64,000 bases of DNA, taken from contig DASXGC010000031.1 in NCBI GenBank assembly GCA_036489235.1, forward strand, positions 13 to 64,012, given 5' to 3'. Positions 2 to 3,400 of this stretch are shown in pieces. The stretch is from Vicinamibacterales bacterium (GTDB taxonomy: Bacteria; Acidobacteriota; Vicinamibacteria; Vicinamibacterales; CAVVIG01). The notes beneath the pieces were generated by a model. It did no database searches, was not told the DNA's origin, and saw only the letters and a program-made list of their open reading frames with translations. Positions within the stretch are counted from its first letter, which is position 1. Each line of letters begins with the position of its first letter. The position numbers and the translations under genes were made by a program.

Positions 2-1030
2 TCCCCGGCTTCTCCGAGCGCTACGTTCATCCCCCGTCGACTGCCATGGAACCGCGAGAAGAGCGTCGCCGGAACGCTGGCGTTCATCGTCTTCGGCGCC
101 ATCGGATCGATCGCGCTCGAACTCTGGACCCGGCCCGCGGTTGTGCCTGCGCCGACGATGACGTTCGCGATCGCCGCGCCGCTGGTCGCAACAATTGCCG
201 CGGCGCTGGTCGAATCGATCCCGATCCGCCTCGATGACAACATCTCGGTTCCGTTCACGGCGGGCGTCGTGATGTGGCTTGCCAGCCTGATGGACCGTGC
301 GTCGATTGACGCATCGGCAGTGCCGGTCCTCGCGACGCTGCCGTGGGCCCTGGCGGCCAACACCGTCGCGGCCTGGGCGGGTTACCGCGCCCGATCGGTT
401 TCGGCGGCGGGTGCCGTCACTGGCTTTGCGATCGGCGTGATCATCTACGCCGGCGCGGGTGGCGGCGCCTGGGTGCTGCTGATGATCACGTTTCTGCTGG
501 CGTCTGTGACCTCGCGCCTCGGTCTCGAGCGCAAGACGCTGCTCGGCATTGCCGAGGAACATGGCGGACGCCGCGGCCCCGGCAACGCGATCGCCAACTG
601 CGGCGTCGCCGTGCTGGCGGCGATCGCGGCGGCCACCACACCGTATGCGGCCACTGCCTCGCTCGCGCTGGTCGCCACGCTGACCGCCGGTGGCAGCGAC
701 ACCGTGGCGAGCGAAATCGGCAAGGCCTGGGGGCGATCGACCTTTCTCGTCACCAGTCTGAGGCAGGTGCCGCCGGGAACTCCTGGAGCGATGTCGCTCG
801 AAGGGACAGCGGCAGGACTCGTAGCGGCATTCGCGCTTGCTGCCGCAGGTGTCGCGGCGGGCCTGGCGCCGGCCTCGTGGATCCTGGCGATCGTGGTCGG
901 GGCGACCGTGGGATCGATGGTCGAAAGCGCGCTTGGCGCGACGCTCGAAGGACCGGGTATCCTCAACAACGACATGCTCAACTTCATCAATACCGCCGTG
1001 GCCGCGGCCGTCACACTGGCGATTGCGTGA
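2..1030 (+). CDS. Fused prenol kinase-like (VTE5/dolichol-kinase family, C-terminal part visible) / DUF92 (VTE6-type prenyl-phosphate kinase family) integral membrane protein; 5' end lies outside the window
   Basis: The frame is open from nt 2 with no stop, so the track's ATG at 143 is internal. 'LPWNREKSVAGTLAFIVFG...AAALVESIPIRLDDNISVPF' matches the C-terminal signature of CTP-dependent prenol kinases (plant VTE5: KSxAGS...ALVESLPI..DDNL). The rest matches DUF92/COG1836 signatures ('FLLASVTSRLGLERK', 'GGSDTVASEIGKAWG', 'NNDMLNFINT'). Strongly hydrophobic throughout. Confidence 0.75.
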   Translation, partial: SPASPSATFIPRRLPWNREKSVAGTLAFIVFGAIGSIALELWTRPAVVPAPTMTFAIAAPLVATIAAALVESIPIRLDDNISVPFTAGVVMWLASLMDRASIDASAVPVLATLPWALAANTVAAWAGYRARSVSAAGAVTGFAIGVIIYAGAGGGAWVLLMITFLLASVTSRLGLERKTLLGIAEEHGGRRGPGNAIANCGVAVLAAIAAATTPYAATASLALVATLTAGGSDTVASEIGKAWGRSTFLVTSLRQVPPGTPGAMSLEGTAAGLVAAFALAAAGVAAGLAPASWILAIVVGATVGSMVESALGATLEGPGILNNDMLNFINTAVAAAVTLAIA

Positions 1031-1932
1031 AACTCCGCGCCTACATCGATCTCGGGCGGCCGTTCACGCTGCTCGCGCCGGCGCTGGGTTTCCTTTCGGG
1101 CGGGTTGACCGCCGTCGGTGCAGCGCCCCGGGAACCGTGGGCGCCTTCGCTGCTGGTGGCGCCGATCATCGGTGCGGCCATGGCGGCGTTGCTCAACGCC
1201 GGCAACAACGCGCTGAACCAGATTTACGACCTCGACATCGACCGGGTCAACAAGCCGAAGCGGCCGCTGCCGAGCCATCGGCTCACGCTCCGCGAAGTCT
1301 GGACGTTCACCGTCATCACCTACGCCGCAGCGTTGGCGCTTGCATGGCTGGTCGCGCCGGGCGGTCGCCACGAGTGTTTCTGGCTGGTCGCGGCGGCCGT
1401 GGTCTTCACCTACATCTACTCGGTGCCGCCGCTGCGCACCAAACGCCTCGGCATCTGGGCCAACGTGACGATCGCGATCCCGCGCGGGGTACTGCTGAAA
1501 GTCGCCGGGTGGTCGTCGGTCAAGACGATCGTCGGCGTCGAACCGTGGTACATCGGCGCCATCTTTGGCCTGTTTCTTCTGGGCGCGACGACCACCAAGG
1601 ATTTCGCTGACATGGAAGGCGATCGACTGGGTGGTTGCCGGACGCTGCCTATTCAGTACGGAGTGCGGCGGGCGGCGTGGATGATTTCACCCTCGTTTGT
1701 CGTCCCGTTCGCGATGATCGCGCTTGGCGCGTGGCTAGGTGTATTGACCGGCAACTTCTGGTTGCTCCAGTTGCTCGGGCTGGTGATGACCTGCTACGGC
1801 CTCTATGTCTGCTATCTGATGCTTCGGCGGCCCGAGGATCTCGCGGTCGAGGAAAACCACGTTTCGTGGGCCCACATGTACCGCATGATGTTCGTCGCGC
1901 AGATCGGCTTCGCCCTGGCATATCTGCTATAG
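1027..1932 (+). CDS. UbiA-superfamily aromatic/lipid prenyltransferase (DGGGP-synthase / chlorophyll-synthase-like branch by eye)
   Basis: GTG at 1027 overlaps the upstream TGA (GTGA). The first Asp-rich motif is 'NALNQIYDLDIDRVNKPKRPLPS' and the second is 'KDFADMEGDRLGGCRTLPI'. About 8-9 hydrophobic segments. The 343..1027 part of the track ORF is an out-of-gene extension. Confidence 0.85.
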   Translation: MKLRAYIDLGRPFTLLAPALGFLSGGLTAVGAAPREPWAPSLLVAPIIGAAMAALLNAGNNALNQIYDLDIDRVNKPKRPLPSHRLTLREVWTFTVITYAAALALAWLVAPGGRHECFWLVAAAVVFTYIYSVPPLRTKRLGIWANVTIAIPRGVLLKVAGWSSVKTIVGVEPWYIGAIFGLFLLGATTTKDFADMEGDRLGGCRTLPIQYGVRRAAWMISPSFVVPFAMIALGAWLGVLTGNFWLLQLLGLVMTCYGLYVCYLMLRRPEDLAVEENHVSWAHMYRMMFVAQIGFALAYLL

Positions 1933-2380: not shown

Positions 2381-3400
2381 ATGGCTTCCTTCCCCCTGCT
2401 CTTCGACCTCGGCTCGACCAGACCCACCACCCGGGACGTCGCCAGGACAGTAAAGGCGGGCGGCACCGCTGCGCTCACCGAGGCCGATCGCCGGGCCGAT
2501 TCCGCGCGCTATCAGGAGGTGACCTGCCGTTCGGCGTTGAACCGCGTCGAGGGGATGCCGTTCAAGTGGACGCTCAATCCGTACCGCGGCTGCACGCACG
2601 GCTGCCATTACTGCTTCGCACGCCGCTATCACGTCCAGTTCGAGATGAACACCGACGATGAGTTCGCGTCGGTGATTCTGGTGAAGCACAACCTGACTGG
2701 CGTCCTCACGCGAGAGCTGGATCGGCCGTCGTGGACCCGCGAACAGGTCGCGGTCGGAACCGCGACGGATCCCTATCAGCCGATCGAAGGGCACTACACG
2801 CTCACGCGCCAGGCGATACAGGCGCTGACGCGCGCAAAGACGCCAATCGGCCTCATCACCAAAGGTCCGATGATCGTGCGCGATCTCGACGTGCTGGTCG
2901 AACACGGACGCGCCGCGCGTTCCGCGGTCTACATGAGCATTCCGACGGTAGACGAGGACGCGTGGCGGCAACTGGAACCCGGCACCGCCCACCCGCTGCA
3001 ACGCCTGCGCGCCGTGCGGCAACTTGCCGAAGGCGGGGTGAATGTCGGCGTATTGATGGCGCCCATCGTCCCGGGCTTCTCATCGTCGCGCAGCAAGATC
3101 GAGCGCACGATCAAGGCGATCGCGGATCACGGCGCCCGCTTCGTCGGCTGCAACGTGATGTACCTGCAGGACGGCACGCGGACACACTTCATGCGCTTCA
3201 TCGAGCGCGAGTTTCCCGCGATGACGGCGCGATTCGAAAGGCTCTATCAGGGAAAGTATCCGCCGCAGTCGTACCGGAAAGAAGTTCAGGGCATGGTGCG
3301 GACCCTGCAGGATCGCTACGGCCTGGCTCCTCGTAAGCAGGCCGGTCCGGAGGCAGAGCCGGAAGAGGCCGAAGCCGAGCAGGTCGCTTTCGCGTGGTGA
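2381..3400 (+). CDS. Radical SAM protein, SplB/Rv2578c-like (COG1533 type)
   Basis: CxxxCxxC cluster motif 'CTHGCHYCFARRY'. Length of 339 aa and overall pattern are typical of the DNA-photolyase-like radical SAM family. Confidence 0.85.
   Translation: MASFPLLFDLGSTRPTTRDVARTVKAGGTAALTEADRRADSARYQEVTCRSALNRVEGMPFKWTLNPYRGCTHGCHYCFARRYHVQFEMNTDDEFASVILVKHNLTGVLTRELDRPSWTREQVAVGTATDPYQPIEGHYTLTRQAIQALTRAKTPIGLITKGPMIVRDLDVLVEHGRAARSAVYMSIPTVDEDAWRQLEPGTAHPLQRLRAVRQLAEGGVNVGVLMAPIVPGFSSSRSKIERTIKAIADHGARFVGCNVMYLQDGTRTHFMRFIEREFPAMTARFERLYQGKYPPQSYRKEVQGMVRTLQDRYGLAPRKQAGPEAEPEEAEAEQVAFAW

Follow-up and report, generated by a model that had tools for sequence, protein, structure and literature searches.

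Organisation of the locus

The window analysed here, a stretch of 64,000 nucleotides (nt) from a Vicinamibacterales genome (contig DASXGC010000031.1, named C200 below), opens with two forward-strand genes forming a candidate module for the activation and transfer of an isoprenoid chain. The first (ORF1) codes for the greater part of a membrane protein in which two kinase-like domains are fused, and the second (ORF2) for a UbiA-family prenyltransferase (Table 1). The window starts 12 nt inside C200, and ORF1 is therefore truncated by the contig end. Full-length homologues of the fusion are 458 to 472 amino acids (aa) long, and the closest of them, P0003 from a Vicinamibacterales metagenome-assembled genome, displays the residues 1-116 that are absent from the window. 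ORF1 corresponds to about the 3' three-quarters of a protein of some 458 aa, composed of an N-terminal domain of about 215 aa followed by a DUF92 domain, and its first 99 residues or so align to residues 117-215 of the homologues. KSVAGT and ESIPIRLDDNISVP are motifs of this remnant of the N-terminal domain; the window does not reach the invariant GDG Asp motif, which is located further upstream.

An original prediction, made from the letters of the window, had described ORF1 as a two-domain protein open at its 5' end, with a complete domain of the DUF92 family and a GTGA overlap of its stop codon with the start of a UbiA gene carrying both Asp-rich motifs. These features were all recovered. 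The DUF92 match (PF01940) covers residues 121-335 of ORF1, behind a separate N-terminal domain, with 149.9 bits for a cut-off of 27.5. Overlaps of 4 nt like that between ORF1 and ORF2 also occur at loci L003, L004 and L122.

Table 1. Features of the fusion and UbiA genes, in window coordinates
Feature	Position	Strand	Evidence or remark
ORF1, fused membrane protein, 3' part	2..1030	+	342 of ~458 codons; 5' end open; 97% identical to P0003 residues 117-458
N-terminal SEC59/VTE5/CdsA-fold domain (predicted), last ~99 residues	2..298	+	alignments, AlphaFold model, fold matches, hhalign
DUF92 / COG1836 domain, family of plant phytyl-phosphate kinase VTE6	362..1006	+	Pfam PF01940, 1.1e-43
GTGA overlap: GTG start of the UbiA gene on the ORF1 TGA stop (1028-1030)	1027..1030	+	
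UbiA-family prenyltransferase (ORF2), 301 aa, GTG start at 1027	1027..1932	+	PF01040, 139.7 bits
First Asp-rich motif of UbiA, N64-Q65-x2-D68-x3-D72-x2-N75-K-P-x-R79	1216..1263	+	invariant columns
Second Asp-rich motif of UbiA, K191-D192-F-x-D195-x2-G-D199 ... C204-x-T-x-P208	1597..1650	+	invariant columns

The upstream partners, which the original prediction had placed beyond the window, were found on a second contig. In close relatives, the genes follow each other in the order lptD, SDR1 (310 aa), SDR2 (321 aa), fusion and UbiA, SDR standing for short-chain dehydrogenase/reductase, and the last four genes overlap by 4 nt. The last genes on contig C214 (8,945 nt) of the same genome are lptD, SDR1 and an SDR2 cut after 101 codons (L182:5278-8945); compared with their counterparts 5' of the fusion in the closest relative, they are 92%, 96% and 94% identical, respectively. 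On these grounds, C214 is the left neighbour of C200, and an unassembled gap of about 1 kb separates the two contigs. Judging from the gene order of the relatives, the window genes are the distal half of a predicted four-gene operon made up of SDR1, the HpnA-like SDR2, the fused kinase-like protein and UbiA.

The two domains of the fusion

With regard to the DUF92 domain, ORF1 is the only gene of this family in the host genome. The hypothetical-equivalog model TIGR00297 of NCBIfam scores 150.7 bits, under its cut-off of 205.85, and hhalign relates the domain to CdsA with a probability of 90%. The corresponding orthologous group, COG1836, has been predicted to act in phytol-phosphate metabolism (PMC3223725).

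The N-terminal domain belongs to a large set of proteins, since a profile search against 1.84 billion representatives retrieved 4,853 relatives, among them stand-alone forms of about 195 aa and a few fused to an epimerase. PF01148 was barely touched, at 0.005, in two out of 42 of these relatives. The alignments display invariant G99-D100, W132, K136-x3-G140, E187 and D195-N196 (numbering of the full protein), and W132, K136, G140, E187 and D195-N196 are W16, K20, G24, E71 and D79-N80 of the remnant in the window. The DDN ending is one that we take to be typical of VTE5/Sec59. In profile alignments, hhalign placed these invariant residues on the catalytic core of CdsA (SDxAxYxxGRxxGxxKLxPxxSPxKTxEG ... 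ES) with a probability of 50% (E 1.7e-4), and matched the domain to the DUF92 domain with a probability of 51%.

The AlphaFold model of the N-terminal domain has a predicted local distance difference test score (pLDDT) of 93. Compared with predicted models of the ESM Atlas, the domain reaches a template modelling (TM) score of 0.77 to a Streptophyta 'putative phytol kinase' cluster, 0.68/0.75 to a 'SEC59/DGK1/VTE5 family' cluster, 0.67-0.73 to a DOLK (PF28421) cluster and 0.72-0.76 to a PF01148-bearing cluster. In a Foldseek search of the PDB, nothing passed E<=0.001, and CdsA came closest at E 0.3. We read these features as placing the domain in the CTP-dependent kinase/cytidylyltransferase superfamily, where the predicted fold resembles the kinase branch. 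The VTE5-like prenol kinase of the original prediction stands as far as the predicted fold is concerned; by hidden Markov model (HMM) criteria, filing the domain in the VTE5 family fails, as neither PF01148 nor another model matched at E<=10.

A CdsA-type cytidylyltransferase, the other identity considered in the original prediction, was rejected, since PF01148 does not match the domain and the CdsA C-terminal signature is absent. The CdsA of the host genome itself, although cut by a contig end, reaches 87.9 bits with PF01148, and the CdsA proteins of its relatives 159-193 bits. A prenol-kinase identity is suggested by the fold matches, the shared motifs and published HHpred results for an archaeal counterpart. 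Fusions of COG0170 (Sec59-like) and COG1836 (DUF92, arCOG02245), such as Mbar_A3310, were described in archaea in 2015 by Makarova, Galperin and Koonin, whose HHpred searches related the N-terminal domain to Sec59 with a probability of 99.85% and DUF92 to PF01148 with one of 97.6% (PMC5898192).

Other domain combinations were noticed among the relatives. The kinase-like domain is fused to an NAD-dependent epimerase in the representative proteins P0314 and P0372, and ESM Atlas clusters from archaea and Bacillota join it to PAP2 phosphatase, HAD hydrolase or TauE domains.

The UbiA prenyltransferase

The PF01040 score of ORF2 is to be compared with a cut-off of 34.2. Both Asp-rich motifs are invariant among 24 orthologues, and a C-terminal ENHxSW motif is likewise invariant in the orthologues, which are unusually conserved within Vicinamibacterales (72-98% identity). 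Every NCBIfam model for a UbiA subfamily stays under its cut-off, namely, PRK12884 (127.7 bits for a cut-off of 269), ChlG (115.3 for 313), BchG (108.8 for 212.3), HPT (95.8 for 226) and DGGGPS (90.5 for 296). The nearest solved structures are ChlG (9sau, 1.4e-18) and the Methanocaldococcus jannaschii DGGGPS (6m31, 5e-18). Three other UbiA paralogues are present in the genome, and because these can be clearly assigned (MqnP-like, haem O synthase and DPPR synthase), the enzyme of the window is an orphan. A complex prediction for the fusion and UbiA returned a score of 0.00, with controls not run, and counts neither way.

The DPPR synthase paralogue is located at C136:8838-9554 (L089:1378-2319) and scores 306.5 bits for an NCBIfam cut-off of 234; the gene next to it codes for 436 aa, and no NCBIfam model matches it. 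Decaprenyl-phosphate phosphoribosyltransferase is best known from mycobacterial arabinan synthesis. Of the Acidobacteriota loci, four (L139, L140, L152 and L153, from genomes G051, G138, G066 and G091) have a G+C content of 32-37%, compared with 65% in the window, and their UbiA proteins are 61-65% identical.

Linkage and co-occurrence in Acidobacteriota

UbiA directly follows the fusion in 79 of the 80 Vicinamibacterales loci, the exception being one where the contig does not allow it, and at least one SDR gene lies 5' of the fusion in these loci (n=80). The fusion-UbiA arrangement is kept in distant homologues sharing 36-38% identity. Co-occurrence was surveyed in an even sample of 151 Acidobacteriota genomes (one of them, G048, unpublished), and the figures are counts, not statistics, related genomes not being independent. 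The kinase domain is present in 61 genomes and the UbiA orthologue in 54, with both in 53, the kinase without UbiA in eight and UbiA without the kinase in one. Among the 53 genomes with both, the genes are adjacent in about 31 (three times in convergent orientation), and in about 22 they are carried by different contigs, which indicates more than operon hitch-hiking. The pairing proposed in the original prediction is thus conserved across genomes, 53 of the 54 UbiA-bearing Acidobacteriota having the kinase, and it extends to a second phylum (see below). The module is not essential, since several families within Vicinamibacterales carry neither gene.

The 20 UbiA orthologues unlinked to the kinase gave no acceptor pathway, their neighbours being lineage-specific housekeeping genes only, such as those for a class II RNR, RuvB, a NYN-domain protein and a histidine kinase, as well as a FAD_binding_2 flavoprotein of the succinate dehydrogenase/fumarate reductase type. 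The fusion unlinked from UbiA still follows SDR genes, and in several families is found behind rmlA, rmlB and rmlD, often with lptD. This context could hint at a role in envelope glycans or could, alternatively, reflect a conserved gene order beside a lipopolysaccharide/glycan region.

Versions of the module in other phyla

A split form was found at locus L134, where a 198-aa kinase-like gene is directly followed by a separate DUF92 gene and preceded by genes for a prenyl-diphosphate synthase and a PF01663 phosphodiesterase; the UbiA orthologue of this genome (G173) is located on another contig (57% identity). The nearest named UbiA matches point to Planctomycetota, which suggests that G173 belongs to this phylum. 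Among 101 genomes of the phylum, 25 have both the kinase-like and UbiA genes, four UbiA alone and seven only the kinase-like gene. About 12 genomes have the genes side by side, in several orders, and kinase and DUF92 are separate genes.

NCBI names of the UbiA orthologues include Planctomycetota, Gemmatimonadota, Candidatus Glassbacteria and Vicinamibacteria. The Planctomycetota loci L177 and L178 successively encode a phosphodiesterase (about 750 aa), a prenyl-diphosphate synthase, a protein of 590-660 aa, a kinase-like protein of 194-199 aa, DUF92 and UbiA, followed in L178 by an SDR and a 252-aa protein. The Glassbacteria locus L179 comprises DUF92, UbiA, a phosphodiesterase, a synthase, a second phosphodiesterase and a radical SAM protein, and the Gemmatimonadota locus L180 an SDR, a 194-aa kinase-like gene, a hemerythrin, DUF92 and UbiA. 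A prenyl-diphosphate synthase is encoded in the same operon in L134, L177, L178 and L179. The short kinase-like proteins share 38-44% identity with the N-terminal remnant of the window.

SDR2 is 43-44% identical to the SDRs beside the module in Planctomycetota and Gemmatimonadota, whereas SDR1 has no such match; this makes the HpnA-like SDR the fourth core component, found in three phyla. Its best NCBIfam matches are HpnA, OleD and SdmB, all under their cut-offs. Of note, two distant lineages have, after the module, a protein of 240-252 aa that belongs to no Pfam family (L122:4969-5691 and L178:8978-9736; 37% identity, E 5e-35), and no homologue of it was found in the host genome. This protein may belong to the module as an accessory component.

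Isoprenoid context and neighbouring genes in the host genome

The host genome is 94.8% complete, and the genome-wide negatives are to be read at this completeness. PcrB/GGGPS was not found, and neither a type-II reaction centre nor a tocopherol cyclase gave a match, the latter negative being weak because the search control stayed below its cut-off. The genome has two trans-prenyl synthases, two genes of the geranylgeranyl-reductase family above the TIGR02032 cut-off (C10:8011-8871 and C238:1662-2546), and a tandem pair of SQS_PSY-family (squalene/phytoene synthase) genes at C430:1954-3575. Hence, the host deals with reduced isoprenoid chains, and squalene or a similar head-to-head isoprenoid is probably among its products. 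A search for sequencing runs listed soil DNA runs only, and no RNA run.

The synthase that better matches the Planctomycetota type is encoded on contig C397, which at its end, 4.7 kb from this gene, also carries about 95 initial residues of a gene like that of PDE742, a phosphodiesterase. A synthase/phosphodiesterase operon at this site was rejected, opposite-strand ORFs lying between the two genes, and PF01663 is uninformative in this genome because it is too common (18 matches).

Downstream of UbiA, the window encodes on the forward strand a 91-aa ORF (2017-2292) with a hydrophobic N-terminus and a tail rich in Ser, Ala, Lys and Pro, belonging to no Pfam family; ORFs of 91 and 97 aa, likewise free of Pfam matches, occupy the same position in two relatives. 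The following gene (2381-3400, +) codes for an Rv2578c-like radical SAM protein, the 339-aa counterpart of which in the closest relative scores 298.9 bits for a cut-off of 430. This gene is kept 3' of UbiA in most Vicinamibacterales loci and not in other phyla, and for this reason probably lies outside the module. Further downstream, a 779-aa ORF codes for a Clp-type AAA+ chaperone, with Clp_N, AAA and ClpB_D2-small domains in the counterpart of relatives, and is followed by two ORFs whose counterparts have peptidase M48 and M20 domains. As the original prediction had noted for the vicinity, no photosynthesis, tocopherol or quinone gene was found in the 8 kb after the module.

A proposed pathway and its alternatives

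The explanation that we consider best, and to which we attach moderate confidence, is a two-step phosphorylation of an alcohol feeding the orphan UbiA, with participation of the HpnA-like SDR. In this scheme, the N-terminal SEC59/VTE5-fold domain would use CTP to phosphorylate a free isoprenoid alcohol, the DUF92 domain would add the second phosphate, as VTE6 does on phytyl phosphate, and the translationally coupled UbiA would ionise the allylic diphosphate and move the chain to an acceptor. The chain would probably be of the C20 class, because the nearest relatives of this UbiA are ChlG, DGGGPS and HPT, and the substrate of the SDR is probably the alcohol, the acceptor or the product. By analogy with the operons of other phyla, which carry their own prenyl-diphosphate synthase and phosphodiesterase-family genes, we favour as the putative alcohol an internal pathway intermediate over environmental phytol.

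Several observations speak against this explanation. The N-terminal domain of five full-length homologues had no Pfam match at E<=10 and no NCBIfam match, two profile sequence searches of the PDB found none either, and its hhalign probability is only about 50%. Its best solved-structure matches, CarS (5guf; Z 7.4 over 103 residues) and CdsA (Z 5.6), have Z scores within the noise range for helical bundles. To our knowledge, the assayed bacterial kinases of either family are cyanobacterial only. Eight Acidobacteriota genomes have the kinase without this UbiA, and in many Acidobacteriota the fusion ends a nucleotide-sugar cluster (rmlA, rmlB, rmlD and extra SDRs) next to lptD. Furthermore, a dedicated synthase that already delivers a prenyl diphosphate leaves two kinases unexplained, unless the intermediate is dephosphorylated and modified.

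The nucleotide-sugar context brings in a function in the supply of carrier lipids for envelope glycans. The SEC59-like domain would then make a polyprenyl phosphate in the manner of a dolichol or undecaprenol kinase, and DUF92 and UbiA would act on an intermediate linked to polyprenyl phosphate, by analogy with DPPR synthase, a member of the UbiA family for which polyprenyl phosphate is the acceptor. In Acidobacteriota, the fusion usually comes after one to four SDR genes, which at L158, L161 and L156 stand behind genuine rmlA (470 bits), rmlB (464 bits) and rmlD (280 bits), often with lptD, and in one family a divergent gene for a GT2-methyltransferase adjoins the fusion. Also in its favour are the epimerase fusions P0314 and P0372, and the archaeal DUF92, whose only conserved neighbour is the cis-prenyltransferase UppS (PMC5898192). 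However, the UbiA of the window is nearest to ChlG, DGGGPS and HPT and not to DPPR synthase, of which the genome has a separate true representative (306 bits), the operon partner in other phyla is a trans-type synthase (PF00348) and not UppS, and the versions found in Planctomycetota, Glassbacteria and Gemmatimonadota lack rml genes. Moreover, to phosphorylate a carrier lipid twice would be counter-productive, and we regard this function as unlikely.

The solved structures lead to another alternative, an archaeal-style ether lipid, in which UbiA would act as DGGGPS on a glycerol- or DHAP-type phosphate, the CTP-transferase-fold domain or domains would give a CDP-lipid like CarS or CdsA, and the SDR would supply or reduce the backbone. 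The CDP-archaeol synthase CarS, then CdsA, are the best solved matches of the N-terminal domain, DGGGPS is among the closest structures for UbiA and some orthologues were named DGGGPS by JGI. The operons of other phyla, with a prenyl-diphosphate synthase and phosphodiesterase-family genes as possible head-group enzymes, and the two geranylgeranyl-reductase-family genes of the host genome would also be compatible with such a lipid. Yet GGGPS/PcrB was not found in the host genome, and neither domain of the fusion matches the PF01148 or CarS HMMs or has the CdsA C-terminal signature, whereas the real CdsA of the genome clearly matches PF01148. In addition, the one characterised DUF92 member is a kinase. 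As no solved dolichol or phytol kinase is among the PDB matches, the CarS match cannot separate a kinase from a CDP-transferring enzyme. An ether-lipid pathway appears quite improbable to us.

The least probable of the alternatives is a salvage pathway of the plant type and nothing more, by which phytol or geranylgeraniol derived from chlorophyll in soil would be converted to a tocopherol-, quinone- or chlorophyll-like product. The family relationships behind it are identical to those behind the two-step phosphorylation proposed above. Phytol is plentiful in soil, the carriers come from soil metagenomes, and UbiA is almost never found without the kinases, as expected for a donor that is not made de novo. 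Against this, the host genome has no reaction-centre match and, for what the weak control allows, no tocopherol-cyclase match, its menaquinone prenyltransferase is the separate MqnP-like paralogue, and the UbiA of the window stays far under the HPT and ChlG cut-offs. A dedicated pathway appears more likely than the salvage function of the original prediction, as indicated by the conserved HpnA-like SDR and by the prenyl-diphosphate synthase that the operons of other phyla themselves encode.

Returning to the two-step phosphorylation, a wider version can be proposed tentatively, and we consider it possible though doubtful. Acidobacteriota, Planctomycetota, Gemmatimonadota and Candidatus Glassbacteria might share a pathway for an isoprenoid membrane lipid, in which the product of the synthase would be dephosphorylated by the phosphodiesterase-family enzyme, modified by the SDR, phosphorylated by the two kinases and transferred by UbiA onto an acceptor, possibly sugar- or glycerol-derived.

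Comparison with known systems and significance

The novelty of the fusion had been overstated in the original prediction, since the archaeal fusion was already described in 2015. Compared by its published description, the archaeal protein has the same order of domains, a Sec59/dolichol-kinase-like domain and then DUF92, both belonging to the cytidylyltransferase (PF01148) superfamily, with conserved Asp residues, and both predicted to be isoprenoid kinases. However, the archaeal fusion is linked to UppS and glycosylation and the bacterial one to UbiA, and the bacterial N-terminal domain has diverged beyond the reach of Pfam.

The proposed sequence from alcohol to monophosphate, to diphosphate and to a UbiA-type transfer would be that of the plant and cyanobacterial VTE5, VTE6 and HPT/VTE2/ChlG/MenA enzymes. 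DUF92 is the VTE6 family, the N-terminal domain resembles a predicted phytol kinase and UbiA is near ChlG, HPT and DGGGPS. Nevertheless, the plant activities are encoded by separate, unlinked genes, whereas here one fused gene carries both kinase-like domains, and its translation is coupled to that of the transferase. The host is not phototrophic and gave no tocopherol cyclase match, an HpnA-like SDR is added, and UbiA fails all the HPT, ChlG and BchG cut-offs.

With the archaeal lipid enzymes, the module shares DGGGPS as one of the two nearest solved relatives of UbiA, CarS as the best solved fold match, and in other phyla the company of a prenyl-diphosphate synthase, as GGPP synthase accompanies archaeal lipid synthesis. 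It differs from them in that no GGGPS was found and no CarS or CdsA HMM matches, and in the low score with the DGGGPS model.

The component enzyme families are of known kinds, and the module is also present in at least three other bacterial phyla. What is new here is the recognition of C214 as the left flank, of the HpnA-like SDR as the fourth part, and of a dedicated synthase gene and two phosphodiesterase-family genes in the operons of Planctomycetota and Glassbacteria. No experimental work on the bacterial module was found in the literature searched.

There is ample documentation of the phosphorylation of free prenols in plants and cyanobacteria and hardly any study of it in other bacteria, and the enzymes responsible for it are still sought in animals and parasites (PMC9782597). 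The module is a compact set of three to four genes, present in several abundant and poorly cultured soil phyla and suited to heterologous expression. Work on it might uncover a new class of prenylated lipids in bacteria, and could provide the first biochemistry of a DUF92 bacterial protein outside phototrophs. Were the product a membrane or envelope lipid, the finding would also have a bearing on lipid biomarkers from soils.

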